Assembly: GCA_041891055.1 (NCBI GenBank)
Contig: CP169074.1
Location: forward strand, 704,001-768,000
Source of the DNA: Halorutilales archaeon Cl-col2-1
GTDB taxonomy: Archaea; Halobacteriota; Halobacteria; Halobacteriales; Afararchaeaceae
DNA length: 64,000 nucleotides
Direction: 5' to 3'
Shown: in pieces, positions 3,861-28,157 of the stretch
Position numbering within the stretch: position 1 is the first letter of the stretch
How the letters are laid out: the number at the start of each line of letters is the position of its first letter
Notes under the pieces: model-generated
Told to the model about the DNA's origin: nothing
What the model saw: only the letters and a program-made list of their open reading frames with translations
Database searches by the model: none
Made by a program: the position numbers and the translations under genes

Positions 3861-4388
3861 CTATTCCTGTGAGACGAGGAGACCCAGATACGACGTGGTT
3901 ATCGAGTCCCCGGGATCGAGTCCGACTTCCTCTAAGACGTCTTTGACTCCGTCACGTGCGTCGTCTAGACTCGCTTCGTCGGCTTCTCTCTCGACTTCGA
4001 CGAACTCCCCGACACCGTCTACGTCGTCGAGAAGGACGTGGTAGCCGTCGAGTTCATAGACCTCTCTTTCTTTTCTGACAGTCTCGAACTCCTCGAAGCC
4101 GAGCGAGGTGAGTACGGAGTCCATAGTGTCGTCGTCTCCGACTTCAAGCTCGAACTCCTCACGTGACTTCGTCTGGGTGTCGAGCTTAGGACCCTTGTAG
4201 GTCAGACGTGTCTCGCTGTCGAGTCTTCTTATGCGTAACGCCTCGTCAGTCTCTGCGAAGTCCCTATGGGGTGCCGAGTAGTAGGTATCGACCTGAGTCT
4301 TCGAACCGTGTCTCTCGGCTCCGATCTCTTCGAGTCTCTGTCTGACCTCGTCTATGTCGGCACGTACCTTAACTTCGACCTCAATCAT
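3861..4388 (-). CDS. cyaB: CYTH-domain protein / class IV adenylate cyclase
   Basis: EVEVK signature, QVDTYY, LRIR, LTYKGP, EFVEVE. Confidence 0.85.
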   Translation of the reverse strand: MIEVEVKVRADIDEVRQRLEEIGAERHGSKTQVDTYYSAPHRDFAETDEALRIRRLDSETRLTYKGPKLDTQTKSREEFELEVGDDDTMDSVLTSLGFEEFETVRKEREVYELDGYHVLLDDVDGVGEFVEVEREADEASLDDARDGVKDVLEEVGLDPGDSITTSYLGLLVSQE

Positions 4389-13785: not shown

Positions 13786-15897
13786 ATGCAAACTCGTACC
13801 GAGACACTTGCCTCCTTGTATCAGGATGGATTCTTCGATATACCGTCATACCAACGTAGCTACTCGTGGGAGGAACCGCAGTTAGCGGACCTCATCGACG
13901 ACCTCCGTTATCTCCCCGAGGAAACCAACCACTTCTTCGGAAACATCATTCTCGACAAGAAGGACGAGCAGTATCAGACAGATAGGGGCAGGCGCTTCGA
14001 TGTCTACGACGTTGTTGACGGTCAACAGCGATTGACGACCGCGCTTATCCTCCTGCACGTCGCCACGCAGTTCGATGACGTGGTCGACGAGACCGTGTCG
14101 GAGGACAATCTGATATTCCCCGTTGACGAGCGCCCCCGTCTGATGCCGCAGGACCAGGACGGGGAGTTCTTTCGGGACAGTCCATTCGGTAGCGCGAGTT
14201 TAGAGTGTGAAACCCCGTCGCAGGAACGTCTCGAATACGTAAAGGAGTATTTCGAGTCGGAATTTGAGGACCTGCCCGTTCGAGAGATATCCGAACGGCT
14301 GCGCTACGACTGCAAAATCAACGTCGTCGAGATAGACAGCGACTCGGAGGCGGCGTCGATTTTCGAGAGCCTGAACGACCGCGGGAAGCCCCTATCATCG
14401 CTCGACAAAACGAAGAGCTTCCTGATGTATATGGACGACCGCTCCAGCAATCAGGGTGCTCTTGAGACGAAAATCAAGCAACGGTTCGGGAGCATCTACC
14501 GCGAGCTGTTCGTCCTCTCGAACGGGCATGACAGAGTGAGCGATTTCGACGAAGACAGTGTGCAACGGTTCCACTGGGGAATCTACGACGGATACGATTC
14601 TGACGAGTACTTCAGCAGTCTCGATACGCTCAAAGACAGACTCCGAGAGCGATACCGTAACGGCGAGTACGATACCGTTCAGGACGAAATTGACGAGTAC
14701 ACGCTGAATCTTCGTGAAGCAGCGTCGGCGTTCGCTGCACTGTTCAATCCTTCACAGCGTCCCGACGAAGTCGAATCCGCACTGAAACGTCTACTCGCAC
14801 TCGGGAGGGTTGCGAACGTTCTCCCCGTCCTGATTGCGGCACAGATGGAGTACGGTGACGATGAACCGGATAAGATGGCGGATATCATTCGCGCCTGCGA
14901 GACACTCGTCTTCCGCGTCTACGCAACCGATGGCAGGCGGGCCGATACGGGACGAGGTAGGTTAGTTCGCCTCGCTCATTCGATTCATGCAGACGATTCG
15001 TATCTGTTCGAGGACGTACTCAATCGTCTCGACTCGATTACCCGCATCTACACCGACGATGACCGCTTTGAGCGCAACCTTCGTGACCCTGACTTCTACG
15101 AGTCAATGTCGAGCCAGGACATTCGCTACTTGTTCTACCACTACGGGCAGAACCTAGACATCGAGATACGCGAAGACGTACAGCGCGACCTCGAACAAAT
15201 CCTCTCTACCTCATTCGAGGTCGAACATATCCTCGCTCGAAAACTCCCAGAGGAAGACATCCCGGAGGACCTGCGCGAGGAGTTTGACGACCACGTCCAT
15301 CGTCTCGGGAACCTCACCGTTGCGAGCGAATACTGGAACAAGAACTACGGCAACCTCCCGTTCGAGCAAAAGAAGATTGCTCCCGAGGGACGCGAAGCAG
15401 AATACAAATCATCGAACCTGCGAGTGCAGCAGAGCCTTGCCGACTATGACGAGTTCGGACGGGCAGAGATTGAGGAGCGGGAACAGAAGATAGTCGACTT
15501 TGCACTCGAAGAGTGGGGGATTGCGTCTGAGCCACAACCGTCCGGGGGGTCGAGTACCGACGAGGGCTCTGATGAGGTAGAGTACGAGAGTCTTCCGGAC
15601 AGTTTCTTCCGGCGGTTGACGAACCGACAGGAGGCGTTCATTCGAATCCTGCTCGATAACGGGAACTGGATGATGAACGAGGATGTCCGTCAGCAGATGG
15701 AGGACGACTATGACCTTGCAACGGGCGGTGGTCAAGCGATATCCGGCATCCTCTCGGGGTTCACCCGGAAATACAGCGAGGACTTCACGTATCGTCTCAT
15801 CGATTACGAATGGATGGGCGACCAGATGCAGTATCGTCTGAATCCCGACTCGGGATACATTGACGAACTACGTGAGCGACTAGAAAAGAATGCCTGA
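13786..15897 (+). CDS. GmrSD-type restriction protein (DUF262 + DUF1524/HNH) with extra C-terminal domain
   Basis: IPSYQRSYSW, DGQQRLTT, FESLNDRG; EHI...HRLGNL...N HNH motif. Confidence 0.9.
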   Translation: MQTRTETLASLYQDGFFDIPSYQRSYSWEEPQLADLIDDLRYLPEETNHFFGNIILDKKDEQYQTDRGRRFDVYDVVDGQQRLTTALILLHVATQFDDVVDETVSEDNLIFPVDERPRLMPQDQDGEFFRDSPFGSASLECETPSQERLEYVKEYFESEFEDLPVREISERLRYDCKINVVEIDSDSEAASIFESLNDRGKPLSSLDKTKSFLMYMDDRSSNQGALETKIKQRFGSIYRELFVLSNGHDRVSDFDEDSVQRFHWGIYDGYDSDEYFSSLDTLKDRLRERYRNGEYDTVQDEIDEYTLNLREAASAFAALFNPSQRPDEVESALKRLLALGRVANVLPVLIAAQMEYGDDEPDKMADIIRACETLVFRVYATDGRRADTGRGRLVRLAHSIHADDSYLFEDVLNRLDSITRIYTDDDRFERNLRDPDFYESMSSQDIRYLFYHYGQNLDIEIREDVQRDLEQILSTSFEVEHILARKLPEEDIPEDLREEFDDHVHRLGNLTVASEYWNKNYGNLPFEQKKIAPEGREAEYKSSNLRVQQSLADYDEFGRAEIEEREQKIVDFALEEWGIASEPQPSGGSSTDEGSDEVEYESLPDSFFRRLTNRQEAFIRILLDNGNWMMNEDVRQQMEDDYDLATGGGQAISGILSGFTRKYSEDFTYRLIDYEWMGDQMQYRLNPDSGYIDELRERLEKNA

Positions 15898-17074
15898 CTA
15901 CGGGGACCGATATGTTGTTAACCAGACGTATCGAAGCTCTAGCGATAGCAACAAAGACCAGTTTCAGAAGTGGCTGAATGATCCGGTTGATACCGGAATC
16001 CGAAACAGCGGTGGAATACGGGCGGTTGCGAATCCCGACACAAAAGAACGTGAATTCCTGGTTTTTGTGTCTGATTCAGGATCCACTCAAACGCAGAACC
16101 CTTGGGAAGATATCATCAACATGGAGGAGGGGATTGCACGGTACTGGGGCGATGCGAAGGCACGACACAGCCCCAACCCCGAAGATGCGAGGGGAAATGG
16201 GTGGGTCAAGGAAGATTACTGCCAAACGTATGCCCGAGGCAGCCGTTCAGAAGCACCTCCCGTCCTACTATTTGAGAAGCCGAAATCTGGCTATGTCACC
16301 TTCCGTGGAATATGCATCATCACGGGAATGAGTATTGAGCGGCACAAGGATGAGGGTGAAACAGTCGTCAATTATCTCTTTGAACTTGCCATCTTAGACG
16401 CCGACTCTATCGAATTAGAATGGGTTCACCGGAAAGCCCGAACTGGTGTTGATATCGGAGGTCCCGAAGCGTGGAGGAAGTGGGTTACTGATGGTCGAAT
16501 CCGCCACTACTCCGTATATAAGGATAATATTCGGCCCAAGAATCAGCAATATCCGAAGGGCAGAGAGGCGGATTTGCTTCAGGATATCCGCAACCAGTTA
16601 CAGAATCCGAACAAGGGCGAGAAACTCGAGTACCTCGTTAGGTATCTCATGGAGGATTTGAAGAACTTCAGTGACGTCGAACTAACGCCACCGAGTGGCG
16701 ACAAAGGAGTCGACCTGACTGGGCGAATTGACTTGTTTGCGGAAACACAACTCGGGAGCGTAGACACGAAGATGGACTTCAAGGCACAGGTCAAAAACAC
16801 GGCGAGTAGTATCTCTGGAAAGGAACTGAGCCGACTGGCATCACGTGTCGATGACGGTGAAATCGGTCTCTTCTTCACTACATCACATTATACGAGAAGC
16901 GCCCAAGAGGAGAACCTGTCCACCTATCCTGTACGGTTATTCTCTGGTGGCGACCTCACCGAGTTACTCGTTCAAACAGAGCTAACCGAGGACGACAAGC
17001 TAACCGACAATATTGTTCTGCAGTTGAGACTGGCTCTCTCAATGCATAGGCCGCAGGCACGGTTTGCTCACTGA
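15890..17074 (+). CDS. MspJI/AspBHI-like modification-dependent endonuclease (SRA-like + Mrr-type domain); C-terminus replaced by transposon
   Basis: NPWED...RYWGDAK N-domain; DKGVD...AQVK catalytic motif; native end EQIHDEVE* displaced to 26318-26344. Confidence 0.8.
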   Translation: MPDYGDRYVVNQTYRSSSDSNKDQFQKWLNDPVDTGIRNSGGIRAVANPDTKEREFLVFVSDSGSTQTQNPWEDIINMEEGIARYWGDAKARHSPNPEDARGNGWVKEDYCQTYARGSRSEAPPVLLFEKPKSGYVTFRGICIITGMSIERHKDEGETVVNYLFELAILDADSIELEWVHRKARTGVDIGGPEAWRKWVTDGRIRHYSVYKDNIRPKNQQYPKGREADLLQDIRNQLQNPNKGEKLEYLVRYLMEDLKNFSDVELTPPSGDKGVDLTGRIDLFAETQLGSVDTKMDFKAQVKNTASSISGKELSRLASRVDDGEIGLFFTTSHYTRSAQEENLSTYPVRLFSGGDLTELLVQTELTEDDKLTDNIVLQLRLALSMHRPQARFAH

Positions 17075-17083
17075 CAACGGGTA

Positions 17084-20000
17084 CTATTTCGACCGCTTGA
17101 ACTCGAACCGTGCCCCGCCATTGCTTCCGTCTGTCACCGAAACCGTCCACCCGTGCGCCTTCGCGATATCGGCCACGATCGAGAGCCCAAAGCCAGTTCC
17201 TCCGTCACTGGACGTGACGCCATGGTTGAACACGTCGTCCTGCTTCTCTTGGGGAATCCCGCTACCGGTATCCTCAACGAAAAATCCGTTGGCCTCGTCT
17301 AGTCCACCCACGGTCACCGTGACATCAGCACCCCCGTGCTCGACTGCGTTCCGGAAGAGATTCTCGAAGAGCTGGGTCAACCGCCCTGCGTCGCCGGTAA
17401 CTTCCGGAACTCCATCTGCAACTGTAAGCGTTGCCTCCCCAGTGTCGACGTATCCCCACGCCTCCGTCGTGATGTCCTCAAGATCGATCTCTTCTGCATC
17501 CTCGATCGTCGTCTCCCCACGTGCCAGCGTCAGGAGGTCCTCAATGAGTCGTTCAATTCGGTCGTGTGCGGATTCTACTTTTTCGAAGTGCTCGGCGTTC
17601 CCGGTTTCCTCTGCGATTTCGAGGAATCCTATCGCGACGGAGAGCGGGTTCCGAAGGTCGTGGGCAACGACGCTCGCGAACTGGTCGAGTCGCTCGTTCT
17701 GTCGGTGTAGTTCCTCTTCCCTGCTCGCTCGTGCGAGTGCTGCCTCGACAGTCGCAGCAAGAATCCGGAACAGGTCGACGTCCGTCTCAGAAAAGACCTG
17801 CGTGGAAACTGACCCCGTCGACATGAGCCCATACTCACCCAGTGGGACGAGAATCTCGCTCCGTATCTCTGTGTTCGGATTGTGGGGTTGCCCCTCGGCC
17901 TGGACATCATTATATACCTGGGTTTCTCCGGACTCAAACGCGTCCCAAGCAAGGCTGTCTCCAGGAGTGAATCGGGGAGACTCGCCAAACAGGTCTCGTG
18001 CTGCGGACGTTTCCGTGATCGGGACGAGCGCGTTCTCTCGCTCGTTGTATTCCCAGATTCCGGTGACATCGAGGTCCAGTATCTCGGCCGCGGCATCGAC
18101 GGCGATCGCTCCGATCTCGTCGCTTGATTCAGCGCCGCTGAGCGATTGTGCGGTGTCCTGAAGCGAGCGGAGGCGAACTTCCAACCGTTTCTGTTCGGTT
18201 ATGTCCTCCAAGACGGCGAGGATGCTCGTAGTCTCTCCGTCGGGGCCTGTAACCGGCGCGACCGACAAGAGCAGGTCCAGTTCGTCTCCGTCTTTCGTCT
18301 CTCGCCGTATTTCCTTTGCTCGGATTCGCTCGCCGTTCAGGACGCGCTGCCGGTGTGAGGCAAACTCTTCCTGCTGCTCGTCCGGAACCATCGGATTGAA
18401 CTCGCCAAGCACTTCGTCCTGGGACCAGCCGAACATGGTTTCAGCCTCGTCGTTCCAGCGGATGACGGTCCCATCCGTGTCGATTTCCATAACTGTGAGT
18501 GGCGTGGCCTCGATGAGTGATTCCAGTCGCTGGTTCGTCGCCTCAAGTTCACGCTCCCGTTCGACCTGCTCGGTAACGTTTCGAGCGATACCCACGACTC
18601 GAACGGTCTCGCCATCGACGACGACCGGTGCGAGGCTGGTCTCCCAGAACCGAGCATCCTCTCCGATGTCGAGCTCTTCACGATACGAAATCGGTGCACG
18701 CTGCTCGACACAGCGAGTGTAGTTAGCCTCGAGTTCAGCACCCTGCTCGTCGCCGAACACCTCTCGGGGTGTCTTGCCGCGGACCTCCTCAGTTGTAAGT
18801 CCGGTCTGCGTCTCGTATCCGGGACTGAGTCTGGCGAACTTGAATGAAGGGTCCTCACCAGCGGTATCGACATCGAGCAAGAATATCGCGTCTCCGGATG
18901 TCTCAAGCAACGCCTCGTATTCCTCCGCGAGTTCTCGGTACTGGTGACGTTCCGCTTCTCGCTCCGTGATGTCCTGAAAAACACCCCGAAGTACTGCGTC
19001 GCCCCGGGGTGTGTCCTCAACGTACTCTCCCCACGCCCGAACGTGACGCACCTCGCCGTCGGTTCGCACGATTCGGAGGTCGAGGTCGTACGGTTCCCCG
19101 TCTTCGATTGCTCGGTCGACTGCTGCGGTAATCGTCTCTCTGTCGTCGGGGTGGTAGAACTCGATCGCGTCGTCGAGGGAGGGCTCGTAGTCCTCGTCGA
19201 CACCGTGAATCTGACGGACCCCGTCAGACCAAATGAGTTCGCCGCTCGATGGGATGAATTCCCAGATACCGACATCCGCGATGTCCTGAACGCGGTCGAA
19301 CAGGAACCCCTGGCGCTCGAGTTCGGTATGGTCACGACGACGCGAGAGTTCGGCACTCACCAGTTCCGCGACTAGCTCGACAAACGTTCGTTCGAGCGCT
19401 CCGAACGGCGCGACTCGCGTCGTCGGACTCGAGAAATTGACTGTTCCGTAACGCGTGCCATCGACGACGAGTGGCACGCCGATGTACGACTCTAACTCGA
19501 AGTCACGGTAGGCAGGATGCGTCTCTTTCCCGTCGCTAACGGCGTCGACGAACGAACAGACCGAATCCGTGCCGACGACTTCCGCACAGTACGTCGATTC
19601 GAGATTGAACTGATCGCCAGCTTCGATATCGGCTTCCGGTGCGTGAGCTGCTTCGACCGTGTAGTCGCTGTCCTGAATCCGCGAGACGATACCGATTTCG
19701 AGTCCGAGCGTCTGGCAACCGACTTCAAGGAGATTCTGGAGGCGCGACTCGGCCGAGACATCGCTTTCTGCCATGACCGCCTGGAGGTCCTGGAGTGCGT
19801 CCCGCTCTCGTTCCAATTGACGCTTTACCTCGCTTTGTTCGGTCACGTCTCGAGCGACAACGAGAACCTGCTTACTTTTGCGACTCTGGAACGGGGTTAC
19901 CCGGACGTCGAATGTCCGCTCGCTGGTCCCGGCCACGACGTCGAGTTGGAGGTCTGCATCGTACAACCCGGTGGACCCACCATCGCTCTCGATCTCGTCG

Positions 20001-20989
20001 AGCGTCGATTCGACTGCCTGGGAGAATCGCGTTATATCGGAATCGCTAACGCGGTCACCGACGACCGTTTCGAGCTGTTGTCCTGAGAGCTGGGCCGACT
20101 GATCTCCGGCGAGCAACCGCTTTGCAGCCGTATTCGCGAACTCGATATCACCTTGCTCGTCGAGGACGAACACGACGTCGTGGATGTTCTCCAGAATCGC
20201 GTCACTGCGCTCTAGCTTCAGTTCCCGTTCTCGCTCGGCAGTAATTTCGCGTGAAAAGACGGTCAGCCCGTCCTCGTCCGGGAACGCTCGCACTTCGACC
20301 CAGTAGCCGAACGGCTCTCCCAGCCGCTGTTCGAACGATACCGGTTCACCAGTCTCCATCGCCGTTCGATACTTGTCTTCGAGTTCCGTCCCGACGATCG
20401 ACGGGAACTCTTCCCAGATGGTTTCTCCGACAACCGCGTCCGGGTCACGTTCGACTCGCTCGGCCATCTTCTCGTTTATATACTCGATGCGCCAGTCGCT
20501 ATCGACGGCGTAAATCGCGTCAGTCGCGCGTTCGAGCGTTCGTCTGAAGCGCCGTTTCGTCTGCTCGGCCTCCGTGCGCTTGCGAGCAGCCCTCGTGAGT
20601 GTCCGGATGCGGGCCGCGAGCAGTGTGAAGTTATCACGCTCCGACCGGACTGGGATGTATTCCGAGACGCCGGCACGAGTCGCTTCGCTCGCGATCTCCT
20701 CACTCCCTTGTCCAGTAAAGAGGATTATCGGGATATCATCGTTCTGCTGGCGAATCGACTCCGTAAGCCCGATGCCGTTCGAATCGTCGAGCGAGTACGC
20801 CGTTACGATACAATCGATCCGGTCCGCAGCAAGATTGCGCAGTGCTTCGTCGATACCGTCGGCAGGTATATAGTCGATCTCGGTACTCGTTTGTTGGAGC
20901 TTGGTTTGAACCAACTCCGCGAACGCGGGATCGGAGTTCACGTAGAGGACGCGGATAGGATCGTCGAGTTCGTCAGTAGTACCGAGCAC
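17084..20989 (-). CDS. Hybrid sensor histidine kinase (pseudo-REC, ~5 PAS, 2 GAF, HisKA, HATPase)
   Basis: HDLRNPL H-box, FENLFRNA N-box, DTGSG and GTGFGL G-boxes; repeated PAS ends (DIT/DVT). Confidence 0.92.
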   Translation of the reverse strand: MLGTTDELDDPIRVLYVNSDPAFAELVQTKLQQTSTEIDYIPADGIDEALRNLAADRIDCIVTAYSLDDSNGIGLTESIRQQNDDIPIILFTGQGSEEIASEATRAGVSEYIPVRSERDNFTLLAARIRTLTRAARKRTEAEQTKRRFRRTLERATDAIYAVDSDWRIEYINEKMAERVERDPDAVVGETIWEEFPSIVGTELEDKYRTAMETGEPVSFEQRLGEPFGYWVEVRAFPDEDGLTVFSREITAERERELKLERSDAILENIHDVVFVLDEQGDIEFANTAAKRLLAGDQSAQLSGQQLETVVGDRVSDSDITRFSQAVESTLDEIESDGGSTGLYDADLQLDVVAGTSERTFDVRVTPFQSRKSKQVLVVARDVTEQSEVKRQLERERDALQDLQAVMAESDVSAESRLQNLLEVGCQTLGLEIGIVSRIQDSDYTVEAAHAPEADIEAGDQFNLESTYCAEVVGTDSVCSFVDAVSDGKETHPAYRDFELESYIGVPLVVDGTRYGTVNFSSPTTRVAPFGALERTFVELVAELVSAELSRRRDHTELERQGFLFDRVQDIADVGIWEFIPSSGELIWSDGVRQIHGVDEDYEPSLDDAIEFYHPDDRETITAAVDRAIEDGEPYDLDLRIVRTDGEVRHVRAWGEYVEDTPRGDAVLRGVFQDITEREAERHQYRELAEEYEALLETSGDAIFLLDVDTAGEDPSFKFARLSPGYETQTGLTTEEVRGKTPREVFGDEQGAELEANYTRCVEQRAPISYREELDIGEDARFWETSLAPVVVDGETVRVVGIARNVTEQVERERELEATNQRLESLIEATPLTVMEIDTDGTVIRWNDEAETMFGWSQDEVLGEFNPMVPDEQQEEFASHRQRVLNGERIRAKEIRRETKDGDELDLLLSVAPVTGPDGETTSILAVLEDITEQKRLEVRLRSLQDTAQSLSGAESSDEIGAIAVDAAAEILDLDVTGIWEYNERENALVPITETSAARDLFGESPRFTPGDSLAWDAFESGETQVYNDVQAEGQPHNPNTEIRSEILVPLGEYGLMSTGSVSTQVFSETDVDLFRILAATVEAALARASREEELHRQNERLDQFASVVAHDLRNPLSVAIGFLEIAEETGNAEHFEKVESAHDRIERLIEDLLTLARGETTIEDAEEIDLEDITTEAWGYVDTGEATLTVADGVPEVTGDAGRLTQLFENLFRNAVEHGGADVTVTVGGLDEANGFFVEDTGSGIPQEKQDDVFNHGVTSSDGGTGFGLSIVADIAKAHGWTVSVTDGSNGGARFEFKRSK

Positions 20990-21138
20990 AGTTACAGAGA
21001 TTTAACTCCCTAACTGGTTAAACATTTCCTGCGAGACACTCCGGGGAGCTATCAAGCTCTCTAATGACCAGACAAGTGCAATTCTCGGGGGTCGGTATGT
21101 CGGTCAATTTAAGGAAAAGGGACGGATATTCCACTAGT

Positions 21139-21510
21139 ATGCCTGCGGAAATTCTGGCTGCTGACGACGACGAAGATATCAGAGAAATGATCGATGTTAG
21201 TCTCAGTGGGGATTTTGACGTCGAGACTGTAAAAGATGGCCGAGAGGCATGGGAGTACTTAGAACAGTCCCCGGGTTCACTACCGAAAGCGGTCATTCTC
21301 GACGTCATGATGCCAGAGATGGACGGGTTTTCGGTTCTGGATCGCATCCGGGAGAACGACGAGATGCAGGATATTCAGGTTATTATACTGACATCTCGGA
21401 GTCGGGAGGAGGACATCGTTCGAGCGCTCGAGGCAGGCGCGGACGATTTCCTGGCGAAGCCCTTCAATAAATCCGAACTGTACGGACGTGTACAGCAAAC
21501 TCTCGAGTAA
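21139..21510 (+). CDS. Single-domain response regulator (REC)
   Basis: ADDD, LDVMMP, LTS, AKPF motifs. Confidence 0.92.
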   Translation: MPAEILAADDDEDIREMIDVSLSGDFDVETVKDGREAWEYLEQSPGSLPKAVILDVMMPEMDGFSVLDRIRENDEMQDIQVIILTSRSREEDIVRALEAGADDFLAKPFNKSELYGRVQQTLE

Positions 21511-21563
21511 GCGACCGTACAGAATTGAAACAGTAAAGGTGCATTAGCTGGTAGATAGTCACA

Positions 21564-22730
21564 ATGTGGGTGGCCACACTAGTCGCCGTGATCGGTCTCT
21601 TGAGCGTCGGGGCCATCACTCAGTTCACCGGGTATCGTATGGGAGGGTCAATCACCATTCCCGTTCTTGCCGTGTACTCTTTGAAGAACTTCGTCATGCT
21701 CCCCGTTTTTGTGTTGAGCGCGGCAGCCGCGTACGTCGGCCTGTGGATCCTCCGTCGTCGAACATTGATATTTGGTCGTGACGAGCTCATCGCAGCGATG
21801 GTCATCGGCACAACCGTTCCAGTAGTCACGCTCTTTTTCATCCTGCAATTAGGACTTGAGGTGGGAGTGGTTGCGTTTCTGGGAAGTATTCTCCCTGGAC
21901 TCGCAGCGTACAATTACCATCGAATCAAGCCGGAGTATCGCCGAAACGACCTCTTGGCGAGTATCGGGTTGTTCGTTACCCTCACTGCGCTCGGTTGGGT
22001 ACTGGTTTCCAATGGATATGCGCGTGAATTTGGTGCGCTGACGCCCCCAGTCCTCTTCTCTTCGACTGCAGACGTCGCTAGTTTCAAAGGTGTTGCAGTG
22101 TCACTCGATCCCGAATCTGTCATACTCCCTCGAGAAATCGTGGCCGGACTGTTCGCTGGTGGGCTCGTTCTCTCTGAACGGCTCCGGGATCGGTTCGGTG
22201 TTCGTGTCGGGATCGTCGGTGCGGTCCTCCTCGCGATTTATGCGCTAGCGAGCTATTGGCTCGTGATTCTGTACGTCATTTTGCTTGCGCTATCGTTCGG
22301 CTTCATCCAGTTGTCGAACTACCTCACACTCCGGTACGGACGAGTCCTTCTCGGAGTGACTGTCGCAGTCGCGATCTTCGCTACAGTATCGCTGACGTTT
22401 GTCTTACCGATTGAGCGAGGACTGTCGGCGTTCTTTACTGCGATTTTGGCAGGTGTCGGGGCGTACAACGCGCATGCGTCAGCACCATTCGAGCGCCGCC
22501 TCGTCGTCCCGCTTCAGATCGTGGTCTTTGTCCCCGCTTTGATCGTCGCTCGACTGTTCAGTGCTCTCCAACCTCGTGGGTTTCCACAAGAGCTGACGTT
22601 GCCTGTCCTGGGGATTGCAGCGGTTCTCTGGGTGGCTGCCCTGGGTGTCGCGTACTGGTATACTGTGTCACCCCCGGGTGAAGATGAGGTTCTCTCTGCG
22701 TCGGTTCTCTCTGAAGGGGGTGAAACATGA
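21564..22730 (+). CDS. capC: Poly-gamma-glutamate synthesis protein CapC/PgsC-like (duplicated domain)
   Basis: Multi-TM; GYRMGG..IPVLAVY, IFGR, GSILPGLAAY motifs repeated in the second half (YGR). Confidence 0.75.
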   Translation: MWVATLVAVIGLLSVGAITQFTGYRMGGSITIPVLAVYSLKNFVMLPVFVLSAAAAYVGLWILRRRTLIFGRDELIAAMVIGTTVPVVTLFFILQLGLEVGVVAFLGSILPGLAAYNYHRIKPEYRRNDLLASIGLFVTLTALGWVLVSNGYAREFGALTPPVLFSSTADVASFKGVAVSLDPESVILPREIVAGLFAGGLVLSERLRDRFGVRVGIVGAVLLAIYALASYWLVILYVILLALSFGFIQLSNYLTLRYGRVLLGVTVAVAIFATVSLTFVLPIERGLSAFFTAILAGVGAYNAHASAPFERRLVVPLQIVVFVPALIVARLFSALQPRGFPQELTLPVLGIAAVLWVAALGVAYWYTVSPPGEDEVLSASVLSEGGET

Positions 22731-24367
22731 GTCGGACTGCCTTCGAGATCTACGGCCGTGGGTTCGGCTGGTCGTGGCGTCTTAGGGGCCCAGCGGAGGT
22801 ACTAGCAACCGGCAGCCGCCACTACGACACATCCCGAGCAGCACGCGAAGCAATTGATCTCGTTCGCGCCGCTGTTACAGAACTATCGGGGAACGAAGAG
22901 TCCTTCCCAGACACCGACGTCGACGCCCCCGACATCATCGTCGAACGAGAGGCCACACCGTCGGGAGAACTCCCGGAAGAACGAAACAACTGGGTCTGGC
23001 GGCTCCAAACTGCAAACGGGGTACTGGGACATAGTGCCGATCGCTTCCCGACGGAAGTGGCAGCACAGTCCGCGGCGGACCAGTTCCTCGACTATGCGGC
23101 GGGGGCGCTGCCGATGTTCTTGGTTGGGGCGGAGTACGAGTGGAAGACCGGCCCGAAGCCAATCGAAGTCGGCTCGTCGAGTTTGACAGGACTGGTCAGT
23201 GAAATAACGAGAGGTATTCGACATCGTAAGGTCCTCGATCAGATCGATACCCAGATTGTCGTCTCGGGGACTCGCGGTAAATCCTCAACCACCCAACGGC
23301 TCGACGACGTCTTCAACCGCCGAGGGTACGACACGCTCACGAAGATCACCGGCAACCATCCACTACTGATCCACAACGGCGAGGTCCATCCTATCGAACG
23401 ACGGGGGCCTCGAACGACGCTCTACGAGAATATCAGTCTCATCGCTGAGTTCGTCCCCGAACTCGATGCGTACGAGCCGGACGACGTCGCTATCTTCGAG
23501 AATCAGGGTATCACAGAATACACGACCCGGCTGTTCAACCAGCGTCTGACCGATCCGGACATCATCGTGTTAACAAACGTCCGTCAGGACCACACAGATA
23601 CCCTTGGAAAGACCAGGACAGACCTTGCACGTTCGTTTGCGCGGTCGGTCCCAGCGGGAACACACGTTGTGAGCGGCGAGCAACACCCGGTGTTGCACGA
23701 ATATATGCAAAAAGAGATCGAACGCCGCGGAGGGACTATCGAGCAGGTTGATATTCCCGACGAACACGAAGGGCTAATCGGTTCTGAAACGATCCACGCA
23801 GTCAATGTGGTGTTAGATGTTGTTGGCGAACCGCCACTTCCAGCCGAGGAGATCGAATCGTTCCTCAGTGCGATCCAACCAACGTGGATAGAACTTGAAG
23901 ACGGACTCATCTTCAACGCTGCCGAGGTGAACGACGTCGAAAGTACTGAGATGGTTCGACGGGTGCTCGTCGATGACGAATGTATCACCCCGTTCGTGTA
24001 CCTCCGAAGAGACCGGCGGGGGCGTACAGCGTCATTTGCTCAATATATCGAGTTGCTATTCGAGCGAGAGTTAATCGATGAAGCTCACATCGGTGGGGCT
24101 AACACACGCGCATTCGCCGAAAACGTCGATGTTCCAACCAAGTGCCACAGTCAAAATGCGGACCCAGAGCAGGTTCTAACTGAACTGTTCACCGATGGCC
24201 GACCGGTCATCCTCATGGGTAACACGGTGGACGAGTTTATGCGTGAGATGCAGGCGTCGATTGAACAACGAGTGAAAGAGAAAAGACAGGCTGCCTCGGC
24301 AAGCGAAGCTGTTGACATTTCTGAACAGGGGAGCGCGGAAGCGACTAAACCAAAAGATCACGAATAA
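22727..24367 (+). CDS. capB: CapB/PgsB-like Mur ligase with tandem N-terminal DUF1508/YegP-like domains
   Basis: SGTRGKSST, KITG, TNVRQDH, NAAEVNDVES, RRDR, LMGN; two W-x-WRL repeats at the N-terminus. Confidence 0.8.
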   Translation: MSRTAFEIYGRGFGWSWRLRGPAEVLATGSRHYDTSRAAREAIDLVRAAVTELSGNEESFPDTDVDAPDIIVEREATPSGELPEERNNWVWRLQTANGVLGHSADRFPTEVAAQSAADQFLDYAAGALPMFLVGAEYEWKTGPKPIEVGSSSLTGLVSEITRGIRHRKVLDQIDTQIVVSGTRGKSSTTQRLDDVFNRRGYDTLTKITGNHPLLIHNGEVHPIERRGPRTTLYENISLIAEFVPELDAYEPDDVAIFENQGITEYTTRLFNQRLTDPDIIVLTNVRQDHTDTLGKTRTDLARSFARSVPAGTHVVSGEQHPVLHEYMQKEIERRGGTIEQVDIPDEHEGLIGSETIHAVNVVLDVVGEPPLPAEEIESFLSAIQPTWIELEDGLIFNAAEVNDVESTEMVRRVLVDDECITPFVYLRRDRRGRTASFAQYIELLFERELIDEAHIGGANTRAFAENVDVPTKCHSQNADPEQVLTELFTDGRPVILMGNTVDEFMREMQASIEQRVKEKRQAASASEAVDISEQGSAEATKPKDHE

Positions 24368-24446
24368 AACGTCAGCTTCTGTAAGAAGCGGGCCTTTTCG
24401 TTAGATGTAGACGTGTTCTTGAGGGGGCCAGAACGATTGTCCGGTA

Positions 24447-26120
24447 GTGGCCATTACTACTGAATCTCGGAGAACCGTCTTTCGACAAATTGCACGACTG
24501 TCGTACGTTGAGTGGCCAGCGTACGATTCGACACCGTTGTACGACCGCACCTCACTTACCGGATTAGAGTCGGATGTCCGGATCGTCTCAGGAGCTTGGT
24601 TCACGCACCATGAGCACATCTCTGTTGAGCAGTTCGTCTCCGAACTTCCGCTGGCCTACTTCCAATTCGAGGCCCACGACTGCTACGAGGATCCGACACA
24701 CTACGAGATGGACACCCTGTTTCGCGTGTTCGTTCTGAAAGAACTTCACGGATGGGAGCACGAAACAGCACTCTACGAGTACCTCGAAAGTCATCCGGAA
24801 CTTTGCGAGCGGCTTGGGCTGGAGACAGTGCCTGACCAATCGACACTCTGGCGCAGTTGGCACACACGCTTCACTGATGAGTTTCGCGAGACGATCCAGA
24901 AAGCGGCTCGAACGATCCTCATCAAAGCGCAGAACGCCGACGTCACCGTCCCCCGCGAACCGGAGCAGATTCTCCCAGCTCGTGATGACGTGGACGAATC
25001 GGTTCCAGACGATCGAGCCATTCTGGACAACGCCGATAGAGTCACCAAGCACGTCAGCCGTGTCGTCTTTCCCGCGTTCTCTCTGGATCGTGGCGACAGC
25101 TGTGAGATCCACGAGAACGCCTACTGGGACTTACAAACGTACCTCGGACTTCGCGAGCGGCTGGCTGCAAACGAAGGTGCTCGTAGTTTCCTCTACGAGT
25201 CGACTCGGGATCGGACACCGCTGGGGCACGCCCATCGCGAGCAGATTCGGGACCTCTCGATTGAACAGATTCGAGCGATGTACCGGCAGGCCATCACTCG
25301 GCTCCTGAACGAAGTTGCGGAGACAGAGCAGTTCTTTCGAGCCGGAGTTGTCGCAATCGATATTACCGAAGCTGACCCGTTCACCGGCGATAGAACGGGC
25401 TACGAAGACGAGATCATCGGGACGAAAGAGAAGACTGACGAGTACGCCTATCAGTGGGCGACGGTCCAGTTAGTCGGCAATGCCGTTCCGCTCGTGCTTG
25501 ACGCACGACCGGTTCGACGAGGAGAGTCACGCAAGGAAATCGTCGAGGACTTGCTGGATTCGGCTGAGGACCTCGTTCACGTCGATAACGTGCTGATGGA
25601 CCGGGAGTTCGATAGCCAGCACGTTCTGGAGATGATCAGCCAGTGCGGGCTCTCATACGTCGTCCCGAAACGGATGCAGACCAGCGAGAAAGCCCAGGCC
25701 AAGCGATTGCTCCAGCGCGATCAAGACCGGTATGAAACCGACCGGAAGCTCCACCTTGGCAAGAACGAGTGGCACGAGAAGACGCTAATCTACCGCCGGA
25801 AAGAGGAATCCGAGCACGACGATCACCGGCAGTATTCGGTGTTCATGACGAATCGGGGGAGCGGACACCTTACGGAGTACGGCTACCGGTGGGAAATCGA
25901 GAGCGGCTACAGATCGATCAAACGGTTCATGGCTGCCACCACGTCGAAGGATTTCGGGCTGCGATTCTTCTACTTCGCGTTCGCGTGTCTGCTGTACTCG
26001 ATCTGGCGGGCTGTCGATCTGCTCGTGCAGGTTGAGTTGACTGGTGAGTACGAGCACTCGCCGATGGTGACGGCAGATAACACACTGACACTGCTGAAGA
26101 AGGAGACTGGAATCGGATAG
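24447..26120 (+). CDS. Long IS4-superfamily/ISH3-like DDE transposase
   Basis: AIDIT, MDREF, YRWEIESGYRSIK triad; N-terminal VPDQSTLWR domain. Confidence 0.85.
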   Translation: MAITTESRRTVFRQIARLSYVEWPAYDSTPLYDRTSLTGLESDVRIVSGAWFTHHEHISVEQFVSELPLAYFQFEAHDCYEDPTHYEMDTLFRVFVLKELHGWEHETALYEYLESHPELCERLGLETVPDQSTLWRSWHTRFTDEFRETIQKAARTILIKAQNADVTVPREPEQILPARDDVDESVPDDRAILDNADRVTKHVSRVVFPAFSLDRGDSCEIHENAYWDLQTYLGLRERLAANEGARSFLYESTRDRTPLGHAHREQIRDLSIEQIRAMYRQAITRLLNEVAETEQFFRAGVVAIDITEADPFTGDRTGYEDEIIGTKEKTDEYAYQWATVQLVGNAVPLVLDARPVRRGESRKEIVEDLLDSAEDLVHVDNVLMDREFDSQHVLEMISQCGLSYVVPKRMQTSEKAQAKRLLQRDQDRYETDRKLHLGKNEWHEKTLIYRRKEESEHDDHRQYSVFMTNRGSGHLTEYGYRWEIESGYRSIKRFMAATTSKDFGLRFFYFAFACLLYSIWRAVDLLVQVELTGEYEHSPMVTADNTLTLLKKETGIG

Positions 26121-26364
26121 AGAGACACTCAGTCTGGGTTAGCGCGCTGTCTGAGTGGCTACACTGTTGGATGTCTCGAAAATTCGCCCTTACGGTTGTA
26201 AATGTGACAAGAATGCCGCTTGGAGAGAGAATTGAGGTAGTTTCTGCTGACTAACTCGGCAAAATCCACGCATTACAACCCTGCTATACCTGTTGTAGTC
26301 TCAACTTCCCTATTGTTGAACAAATCCATGATGAGGTCGAATAACGACGATACTGACAGTGATG

Positions 26365-27093
26365 CTAAACCGACTTCGTGTTATTGACAGCGTCTTCTAG
26401 CAGACTCAGAAAATCATTATCGTATCGCTCGTCGACGTGATTCACATTCCAAAGACCGGATTCCCGAATCTCTCGACTACAACTGTATCGACCGAGCCAT
26501 CCATCGGCTCGCGAGTCAATTGTTTGCCCATCGAAATTGCTGAGGAGGGCAATAACATTCCGTTCGAGGTACGCTCGGTCGCTGTCAGCACTCGGTTCGT
26601 CGTCGAGATTCACCCAGAGAAACGGCTGTTCGCGGATGTACGCACTCACTCGTCGTTCGAGGATATACTCCTCCTCACGGACTTCTGACCGCTCACGCTC
26701 AATGCTTGACCAGCGTTTGTCCCAGTCGGGGTAGTCGTCGTGCAGGTCGTGCTTCTCGATAATCGCCTCTCCGACGCGCTTACGATATACAGAACCGCGA
26801 TGAGCGCCCCCATGAGGATGGTTGGAACTCCCGCTGCCTGTTCCGTAGTGTTGTTTCAGCCTATCCCAGAGCTATGTGCTGCTCCCCGCAGACACCGCGT
26901 GTGTCCCCACGCGAGTAACGCGCAACTGGTCAGTCGAGGCGCGTGTTTCGCCCGGTTCGAGGAAGAAGTAGACGCCGCGGTCAGGCCAGTCCATGTACCC
27001 GGTGCAATTTTTGAGTTTCCGTGTACCGTCGACTCGTTTCTCGAGGTCGTCGAGTAACCCATAGAAGCGGTCGAGGTCATCCTGACGGGCCAT
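26365..27093 (-). pseudogene. GIY-YIG-like nuclease gene with one in-frame TAG
   Basis: GVYFF...RVG...LWDRLKQH; the two track ORFs share one frame, broken only by TAG at 26872-26874. Confidence 0.75.
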
Positions 27094-27146
27094 ATGGTAG
27101 AACGTGCGAACCTTGATACTTCGAGGTTTGGAACAATCGTAGCAAT

Positions 27147-28157
27147 ATGGTTGAGCAAGCGTTCATGGTTCGCGCCGGGAACGATAACGAATTAGTCGAG
27201 GAATTCGAGTCGCGTTCTCTGGTCGCGGTTGGATGGGAGGACCTGGGGGACGTATCCGATGTCCGTTCATACGAGGAGATGAAAGCCCGATTCAATTCGA
27301 CCGACGAGTATTCCGAGCACAATAGCCGGCGTATCGCCCAGAGCGCGGGGCAGGTGAATCGATTTGCGTTTGAGATGGAAGAGGGGCATCTGGTTCTGAG
27401 CTACGACAAGACGGAACGCGAGTATCTCATCGGTGAGGTCATGAGTGACTACGAGTGGAAACCGAGCGACCACCCGCCAGGATATCCACACGTCAGGCGT
27501 GTCGACTGGAAGGATACTGTCTCTCGTGACGAGTTCACGACCTCGACGAAGAACACACTCGGGAGTACGCTAACGGTGTTCTCGCTCGACGACTGTATTG
27601 ATGAAATCACGGGCGTTCTAAGCGGGGAGACGCCCGATGAGAGCGAGGAGGAAGAGGACACCGTCCCATTCGTCGACGAGGTAGAGAACCAAGCAGACGA
27701 ACTCATCTCTGACATTCTGGCGAACATGAACCCGTTCGTCTTCGAGGAGTTGGTCGCCGCAGTCCTACGAGCGATGGGATACCACGCGAAGAAGACACGG
27801 GACAGCCAAGACCGAGGCATTGACGTGGTCGCTCATCCAGACTCGTTAGAGTTCGAATCGCCATACATCAAAGCGCAGGTCAAGAGGCAGCAATCGAAAG
27901 TGGGTTCTCCCGAGATGCAACAGTTCAGCGGAGCACTCGGGAATGGGGAACGAGGTTTGTTCGTGTCTACTGGAGGATACACCAGCGGAGCAAGGAGCGA
28001 GGCACAGAACGCCGAACAGCGGGTTACACTCATCGACCGGGACGAATTCATTGACCTCCTGATTCAGGACTACGACGACCTCGAATCCGAGTATCAGGCG
28101 ACGGTGCCGTTGAAACAGGTCTACATTCACTCGCAGGATCCTCCTCTTGAGGAATAA
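27147..28157 (+). CDS. mrr: Mrr-family restriction endonuclease with N-terminal PUA/EVE-like domain
   Basis: MVRAG...VGW N-domain; FEELVA, DRGID, AQVK, GLFVSTGGY. Confidence 0.85.
   Translation: MVEQAFMVRAGNDNELVEEFESRSLVAVGWEDLGDVSDVRSYEEMKARFNSTDEYSEHNSRRIAQSAGQVNRFAFEMEEGHLVLSYDKTEREYLIGEVMSDYEWKPSDHPPGYPHVRRVDWKDTVSRDEFTTSTKNTLGSTLTVFSLDDCIDEITGVLSGETPDESEEEEDTVPFVDEVENQADELISDILANMNPFVFEELVAAVLRAMGYHAKKTRDSQDRGIDVVAHPDSLEFESPYIKAQVKRQQSKVGSPEMQQFSGALGNGERGLFVSTGGYTSGARSEAQNAEQRVTLIDRDEFIDLLIQDYDDLESEYQATVPLKQVYIHSQDPPLEE

Follow-up and report, generated by a model that had tools for sequence, protein, structure and literature searches.

The stretch analysed here, called the window, comprises 64,000 nucleotides of the genome of Halorutilales archaeon Cl-col2-1 (contig CP169074.1, positions 704,001 to 768,000, forward strand); coordinates given without a locus or contig name are window coordinates. 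It holds an inserted element of 9,293 bp that interrupts a type IV restriction endonuclease gene in its last codons and carries four passenger genes and one DDE transposase gene. From left to right, the features of the locus are as follows.

15890-17017, plus strand: first 376 codons of an AspBHI/MspJI-like type IV restriction endonuclease (Pfam; homologs of 383-387 amino acids)
17011-17017: left copy of the target-site duplication, TATTGTT (read in the letters, and from contigs that join 17010 to 26311 with 7 letters fitting both sides)
17018-26310: inserted element, 9,293 bp, flanked on both sides by the perfect 7-bp duplication TATTGTT
17018-17048, plus strand: left end of the element, CTGC followed by AGTTGAGAC-TGGCTC-TCTCAATGCATA (single match in window and genome; the motif also bounds the left side of relatives)
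17084-20989, minus strand: hybrid sensor kinase of 1301 amino acids with receiver, PAS and GAF repeats, HisKA and HATPase_c (Pfam, NCBIfam)
21064-21510, plus strand: single-domain response regulator (Pfam)
21564-22730, plus strand: PgsC/CapC-like membrane protein of the poly-gamma-glutamate synthesis type (Pfam Caps_synth_CapC; Haloferax copies are annotated PgsC/CapC)
22727-24367, plus strand: Mur-ligase-family protein resembling PgsB/CapB (Pfam, NCBIfam)
24447-26120, plus strand: DDE transposase of 557 amino acids (DUF772 N-terminal part and DDE_Tnp_1) with the motif YGYRWEIESGYRSIK
26271-26310, plus strand: right end of the element, ...CTGCTATACCTGTTGTAGTCTCAACTTCCC (subterminal sequence conserved in the family; alignment of ends)
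26311-26317: right copy of the target-site duplication, TATTGTT
26318-26344, plus strand: displaced last 8 codons (EQIHDEVE) and stop of the restriction gene (same as the tail of a natural homolog)

The interrupted gene encodes an AspBHI-type N-terminal domain (RE_AspBHI_N, PF18062, 2.9e-45) and an Mrr-type catalytic domain (Mrr_cat, PF04471, 2.5e-11), the combination that defines AspBHI/MspJI-like nucleases. In its present form the open reading frame (ORF) spans 15890-17074 (394 amino acids), runs into the element and ends in ...DNIVLQLRLALSMHRPQARFAH and a stop; the final 8 residues of the nuclease are replaced by 18 element-encoded ones, and both domains are kept. On the far side of the element, 26312-26344 encodes IVEQIHDEVE and a stop in the frame of the interrupted gene. 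Removal of the element rebuilds a nuclease of 384 amino acids with the tail ...TDNIVEQIHDEVE. The original prediction had proposed this reconstruction, and it was borne out by a natural homolog (P0001) that is 98% identical, is 384 amino acids long and ends in ...DKLTDNIVEQIHDEVE, exactly the rebuilt tail. In that tail, window residue 376 is joined to the eight codons of 26318-26341. Among the best 30 of 144 nuclease homologs, all 30 are 383-387 amino acids long.

Contigs from four public sequencing runs were compared with window positions 15000-27500. Runs X1 and X2, from different studies, each yielded a contig in which 17010 is linked to 26311 with 9300 bases missing between them; 7 letters in X1 and 6 in X2 fit both sides of the join. 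At a length of 2050 bp, the X2 contig shows 9 differences across the 1054 nuclease bases that it covers. A contig from run X3 links 17007 to 26315 through seven variant letters, which match the DRVV-type allele of two further homologs (P0002 and P0003). All three metagenome loci that encode a relative are uninterrupted, the nuclease gene being followed directly by the downstream flank of the window; at locus L040 the left flank aligns up to 2486 and the right flank from 2487. The empty site exists in nature in near-identical genomes. The share of left-junction words per run was at most 0.43, which is compatible with runs having the gene or the element and is not evidence alone. A genome of the same genus (G001) is without the nuclease locus, contains only a weak GmrSD match and has no bearing on the empty site.

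By itself the 7-mer is weak evidence, as TATTGTT occurs 5 times in the 64-kb window where 1.87 are expected. The inverted repeat AGTTGAGACT lies at 17022-17031 on the plus strand and its complement at 26297-26306; these are the sole two exact copies in 64 kb, and each is 4 nucleotides from the adjoining TATTGTT copy, the geometry that the original prediction had described. With one mismatch allowed, AGTTGAGACT gave 9 matches in the window against 7.4 expected, which is chance level; weight therefore falls on the exact pair and its geometry alone. That the insertion is more than a chance arrangement follows from the rebuilt tail, which equals that of the natural homolog exactly, and from the contigs that join 17010 to 26311. 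The left end holds an internal palindrome, TTGAGA/TCTCAA (TTGAGAC...GTCTCAA). A search of the whole 2.06-Mb genome and the window found this one left end and no second left-end or right-end motif. The GC content is 0.58-0.61 in the insert and 0.48-0.52 in the flanks; given this contrast, the single transposase copy and the single left end genome-wide, the element is foreign to its host genome. The insertion of 17018-26310 with its 7-bp duplication is recent, since the repeat is perfect, all ORFs of the element are open and the genome holds one copy.

The transposase ORF at 24447-26120 is the only one in the element and has one copy in the whole genome. As had been noted from the letters, it stands at the right end and no left repeat lies directly upstream of it; a repeat finder with a minimum of 12 nucleotides detected no longer inverted repeat linking the region upstream of the transposase gene to the right end. 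No integrase ORF lies within the element. The passenger genes had been described as a signalling and capsule module. The signalling part stood (hybrid kinase and response regulator), and 'capsule' did not in the strict sense, the remaining two genes being a poly-gamma-glutamate-type PgsB/PgsC pair, of which the PgsB/CapB-like protein scored below the curated cut-off (86 bits against 222.7).

The same 9.3-kb unit was found by megablast in other replicons. Plasmids pSVX82-1 of Haloferax lucentense (93.7%) and pBNX82-1 of H. alexandrinus (93.5%) match 17022-26309 in one piece, with the four passenger genes as in the window and with different flanks. The boundaries 17018/17022 and 26309/26310 are common to the window element and the Haloferax copies and define the ends of the unit. 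The copy in H. volcanii pHV3 corresponds to 17022-25024, its transposase gene being cut by an ISH3 element, and that in Salarchaeum pJOR178 to 17022-24413, without the transposase. Among the matches listed, 8 of 12 plasmid matches to the kinase part begin exactly at 17022. In pHV3 a second transposase gene, that of ISHvo14 (25% identical), abuts the element and ends ~200 bp before its left end (L025, 3067-5000). Such an arrangement would suit homologous recombination, or the remnant of a composite transposon whose second insertion sequence (IS) has been lost, with the 7-bp repeat a coincidence. This is extremely improbable for the window: the ends of ISHvo14 are unrelated, no second IS or remnant lies at the left end, and when the element is precisely removed along with one repeat copy, the natural gene is recovered to the residue, in a form that exists in nature. 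A composite transposon has two IS copies bracketing its cargo, and one transposase gene was found in the element and in the genome. The composite reading was rejected on the exact empty site and this single copy.

Transposase relatives at 77-83% identity occur in many haloarchaeal genomes. Matches at E <= 0.001, distant ones included, were obtained in 34 of 61 genomes. Plasmid records with a match number 220, of which 126 match over at least 80% of the protein; the genera were all haloarchaeal among the matches listed. In 9 of 10 loci the relatives cease to resemble the window in DNA sequence at 26308-26312, and the right end ...AAACCCGCTGTAGTCTCAACTTCC is common to all relatives compared. The family right end (...GTAGTCTCAACTTCC) adjoins the single transposase of each element. 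The left motif, CAG[T/A]-AGTTGAGAC-N6-TCTCAATGCATA, sits 0.9-10.5 kb upstream of the transposase gene of the relatives on the same strand, and at the left boundary of every delimited relative; the window element has the tip CTGC instead of the usual CAGT. The two family ends have only a core of ~10 nucleotides in common, and each is conserved separately. Allowing up to 2 mismatches, the 27-nucleotide left motif was present in 126 of 251 sampled Halobacteriales genomes (118 of the 238 that are at least 90% complete), and a control with the reversed pattern gave 0. Elements bounded by the left motif measure 0.8-16 kb.

These ends bear on the nature of the left boundary, for which the original prediction had left two options, a unit transposon or an IS that uses a distant surrogate end. 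Under the second, an ordinary IS of ~1.9 kb (24.4-26.3 kb) would have lost its left end and been served by a one-off chance surrogate 7.4 kb upstream, through ISEcp1-type or one-ended mobilisation. The 10-bp repeat is indeed all that the two ends have in common, and no look-alike of the left end lies upstream of the transposase gene. The same lack is found in the relatives, however: in the 400 bp upstream of the transposase gene, an inverted copy of the right end was seen in 0 of 7, the best match being 11/20, and a proximal left end in 0 of 7. Even the smallest element with a transposase (L032) measures 2,767 bp; it has a 0.9-kb leader that holds only small ORFs, and a perfect repeat. With the left end present as a 27-nucleotide motif in 126 of 251 genomes and at the boundary of all delimited relatives, and with the 9.3-kb unit occurring between the same two boundaries in Haloferax plasmids, a chance surrogate is highly improbable. 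It was rejected on the family-conserved left motif, and of the two options the unit transposon was retained.

Same-orientation arrays of left ends were also seen, for example at G242:C10 63417-69308. In genome G122 all 13 left ends lie on one strand, including a 90-bp tandem pair.

Flanking duplications were scored in 25 left-right end pairs. The loci were picked around transposase genes or right ends and form a non-random sample. A perfect 7-bp direct repeat was found in 7 of the 25, in a fixed geometry (4-5 nucleotides outside AGTT and 1-2 nucleotides after TTCC), and 2 further pairs matched in 6 of 7 positions. In the null of 592 mismatched pairings of left and right flanks, none was perfect and 4 matched in 6 or more positions. 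For the window element, flanking duplication and empty site are both present, and across the family the passenger genes vary and are unrelated to transposition. The check that the original prediction had proposed, on the flanks of transposase homologs, gave the expected outcome, with the same ends, the 7-bp duplication and variable cargo in other copies. Examples are listed below.

L027, 3.0 kb: CDF transporter; no 7-bp repeat
L028, 5.9 kb: ZnuABC-type transporter and DtxR-type repressor; perfect 7-bp repeat
L030, 8.5 kb: ThiC and a radical-SAM enzyme; no 7-bp repeat
L031, 8.1 kb: ArsA, ArsR, ArsC-type phosphatase, MarR and a MazF-like toxin; perfect 7-bp repeat
L034, 12.4 kb: PAS kinases, SpoIIE phosphatase, STAS protein and Bat-type regulator; perfect 7-bp repeat
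L045, 4.1 kb: acyl-CoA dehydrogenase and HTH_10 regulator; no 7-bp repeat
L064, Halarchaeum plasmid, 12.2 kb: two heavy-metal P-type ATPases and a CDF transporter; no 7-bp repeat
L057, 1010-2519, 1.5 kb: both ends without a transposase, Fic-domain gene; perfect 7-bp repeat
L044, 1003-3282: both ends without a transposase, methyltransferase gene
L054, 12436-14746: both-ended units of 0.8 and 1.5 kb without a transposase

The units that have both ends and lack a transposase are probably mobilised in trans.

Neighbouring elements were found at fixed distances from each other. For 14 of 42 left ends, a right end lies 12-14 nucleotides upstream on the same strand (loci L031, L032, L033, L036, L043, L045, L047, L051, L054 and L059; for example L045 14892-14946). 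A gap of 12-14 nucleotides equals 2 nucleotides, 7 bp and 4 nucleotides, so that the two elements would share one 7-bp target; in L031 and L032 the duplicated 7 bp are exactly the right-left spacer. Run X1 also contains a contig in which window 26309 leads back to 17022 across 12 intervening letters, which could be a tandem arrangement or a circle junction. As a whole, the abutments could stem from elements arrayed head to tail, from insertion beside resident ends or from circle junctions. A second regular neighbour is an AT-rich sequence resembling GTATAGCGATATAC, which follows the right end at ~15 nucleotides in 13 of 28 cases (L022, L027-L030, L034, L036, L037, L046, L058, L061, L062 and L064); a left end follows in 7 of 28 and unrelated DNA in 8 of 28, including the window. 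In about half of the 13 cases a conserved stretch of ~250 bp comes after the AT-rich sequence, and no Rfam family was found in three loci with this stretch downstream of their right ends. In annotated plasmids a module comes after the AT-rich sequence, made up of a winged helix-turn-helix (wHTH) or nucleotidyltransferase gene, a small ORF and a tyrosine-integrase gene. For L028, L034 and L037 the duplication lies 6-7 nucleotides upstream of this sequence. The abutments and this apparently preferred, orientation-specific home site suggest that the elements choose their targets. No GTATAGCGATATAC-like home site was seen in the window's own genome, and this may account for the element's landing in a gene.

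The adjoining integrase modules raise another explanation, in which the ends are recombination sites of a tyrosine integrase, the units are integron-like cassettes and the DDE protein is incidental. It draws on the 13 of 28 right ends beside an AT-rich site that heads a wHTH or nucleotidyltransferase gene, a small ORF and an integrase gene, on the same-orientation arrays of left ends and on the fixed-spacing right-left junctions at 14 of 42 left ends. The 7-bp duplications, however, have sequences unrelated to one another and lie at targets that are likewise unrelated, as is characteristic of DDE transposition and not of site-specific recombination. The gene hit in the window is unlike the AT-rich site, the genome is without such a site and the element is without an integrase ORF. 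Integrase-made cassettes are therefore quite improbable.

That 17018-26310 is one unit transposon (a 'transporter IS') with its cargo is given a probability of roughly 0.88. The unit has a single DDE transposase gene beside its right end, four passenger genes between that gene and the left end, and ends that are specific to the family and differ from each other. The likely mover of these ends is the transposase; it would bind the AGTTGAGAC core common to both and move the whole 9.3 kb, by cut-and-paste or through a circle. Staggered target cuts 7 bp apart would give the TATTGTT duplication, and DDE chemistry is suggested by the IS4/ISH3-type DDE and YREK signature. The element landed in the last codons of the type IV restriction gene, within a defence cluster.

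Several observations weigh against this. At the window's right end the gap from TTCC to the duplication is 1 nucleotide, and 6 of the 7 perfect family cases have 2. The inverted repeat common to both ends is short, ~10-11 bp, the two ends being otherwise different and each conserved in its own right. No clear duplication was seen in 16 of the 25 family pairs, some of which may be wrongly paired or rearranged. The two Haloferax copies are without a direct repeat: in L024 (H. lucentense) the 7-nucleotide flanks at 4000 and 13297 are inverted (TTGTGAT and ATCACAG), and L023 has the left flank in common with L024 and a different right flank, which points to these copies having been rearranged or inverted later on. 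In five genomes (G267, G228, G241, G283 and G122) there are 67 left ends to 20 right ends. Many right ends lie beside tyrosine-integrase modules, and other machinery may act on the ends too.

A route of cargo acquisition can be proposed from the excess of left ends and their same-orientation arrays, taken together with the abutments and the home site. Elements would insert beside each other's ends and build head-to-tail arrays. Such arrays may then lose an inner right end with its transposase, and the outer left end would pair with the remaining right end.

The transposase was compared with known families. DUF772 covers residues 86-149 and DDE_Tnp_1 residues 350-499 (Pfam). The best NCBIfam model was ISH3 (NF033541), over residues 255-522, with 102.6 bits against a cut-off of 225; the IS4, IS5, IS701 and IS1182 models all scored far lower, those of IS4 giving 15.6-26.6 bits against cut-offs of 115-250. 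Two signatures can be read in the motif YGYRWEIESGYRSIK, Y-(2)-R-(3)-E-(3)-R and E-(6)-K, which the available text of PMC2266710 describes for ISH3 and IS4. The element is like ISH3 in this motif, in the best-scoring model for its catalytic half and in the usual left tip of its relatives, CAGT, which fits the ISH3 terminal CRGT given in the same text (PMC2266710). It departs from ISH3 in score, in repeat length and in element size: ISH3 repeats are stated there as 4-5 bp and sizes as 1225-1500 bp (PMC2266710), against 7 bp and 2.8-16 kb here, and the window transposase, at 557 amino acids, has an extra N-terminal half. The IS4 family, with its full Y-(2)-R-(3)-E-(6)-K motif and repeats of about 10 bp, does not accommodate it either, as the motif comes with 7-bp repeats and low hidden Markov model scores.

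Identity was 35% to the transposase of ISH7A (pNRC100) over most of the length and 25% to that of ISHvo14 (pHV3). Like the present protein, these are long haloarchaeal DDE transposases with the same fold and motif layout. NCBI annotates ISH7A and ISHvo14 as ISNCY-like, and members of the present family merely as 'transposase'. ISH7 has been called 'noncanonical', with termini that are hard to pinpoint, in the available text of PMC7002104. The ISH7A region differs from the present family in having neither of its end motifs. No report of variable cargo was found in the literature for ISH7A or ISHvo14, and no open-access full-text paper was found on ISHvo14.

A close parallel for cargo is IS231, a subgroup of the IS4 family in the Bacillus cereus group, with elements of 1450-5400 bp according to the available text of PMC2266710. 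It resembles the present family in its single YREK-type DDE transposase and in passengers placed between the left terminal repeat and the transposase gene (PMC2266710). IS231 elements, as described there, are bacterial, make duplications of 10-12 bp, have symmetric CAT... ends and reach at most ~5.4 kb (PMC2266710). The present family, by contrast, is archaeal, has a 7-bp duplication and asymmetric ends with ~10 bp in common, and extends to 12-16 kb. Against the IS4 family of IS231, the window transposase scored 26.6 bits with a cut-off of 115 (NCBIfam). For target choice, IS30 and Tn7 offer the comparison: IS30 inserts next to its own ends, and Tn7, which needs several proteins, at attTn7. 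What they have in common with the present family is that insertion keeps one orientation and a fixed spacing relative to a conserved sequence, and that it also occurs beside resident ends, giving head-to-tail junctions. The transposases are unrelated, and the behaviour of the present family is deduced from genome comparison alone. In kind, the element is a unit transposon or transporter IS, and its family, archaeal and with asymmetric ends, is classed as new.

Passenger-carrying transposons spread resistance and adaptive genes in bacteria. No description of the present transposon family was found in the open-access full-text literature. A 2019 survey of archaeal mobile elements states, in its available text, that passenger-carrying transposons were not detected in archaea (PMC6563490), and in the available text of a 2026 archaeal IS survey 'passenger' is absent and 'cargo' occurs twice, one of them in a reference title (PMC13343696). 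We put at slightly better than even odds the wider proposal that the window element belongs to a large, so far undescribed haloarchaeal family of DDE transposons with two different conserved ends and a 7-bp duplication, which would move gene sets of 1 to >10 kb (metal resistance, signalling, metabolism, toxin-antitoxin) between genera and replicons. By targeting resident ends and the site before integrase modules, such elements would build head-to-tail arrays that lead to new cargo combinations, as an archaeal counterpart of bacterial cargo transposons.

The window provides a clean, datable example, with a perfect duplication, a natural empty site and intact genes. It is also the key to a family found in about half of the sampled haloarchaeal genomes, with genes for arsenic and heavy-metal resistance, transport, signalling and toxin-antitoxin systems. 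The finding explains why annotators failed to locate the termini of these 'transposase' genes, and the two short motifs allow elements to be delimited automatically. For Haloferax and Halobacterium, both genetically tractable, the element would offer a testable single-protein system for moving large DNA.

In all four metagenome runs (hypersaline, tidal-flat or unnamed) the summed contig depth of the transposase part, 24591-26258, was far above that of the flanks. The contigs derive from many organisms and depth does not equal copy number; the value fits many family copies in those communities.

Two further nuclease genes stand on either side of the interrupted gene.

13786-15897, plus strand: GmrSD-type nuclease
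27147-28157, plus strand: Mrr-type nuclease (Mrr_cat)

With the interrupted AspBHI-like gene, these GmrSD and Mrr_cat genes form a cluster of three nucleases, modification-dependent or of the Mrr type, in which the insertion site lies.

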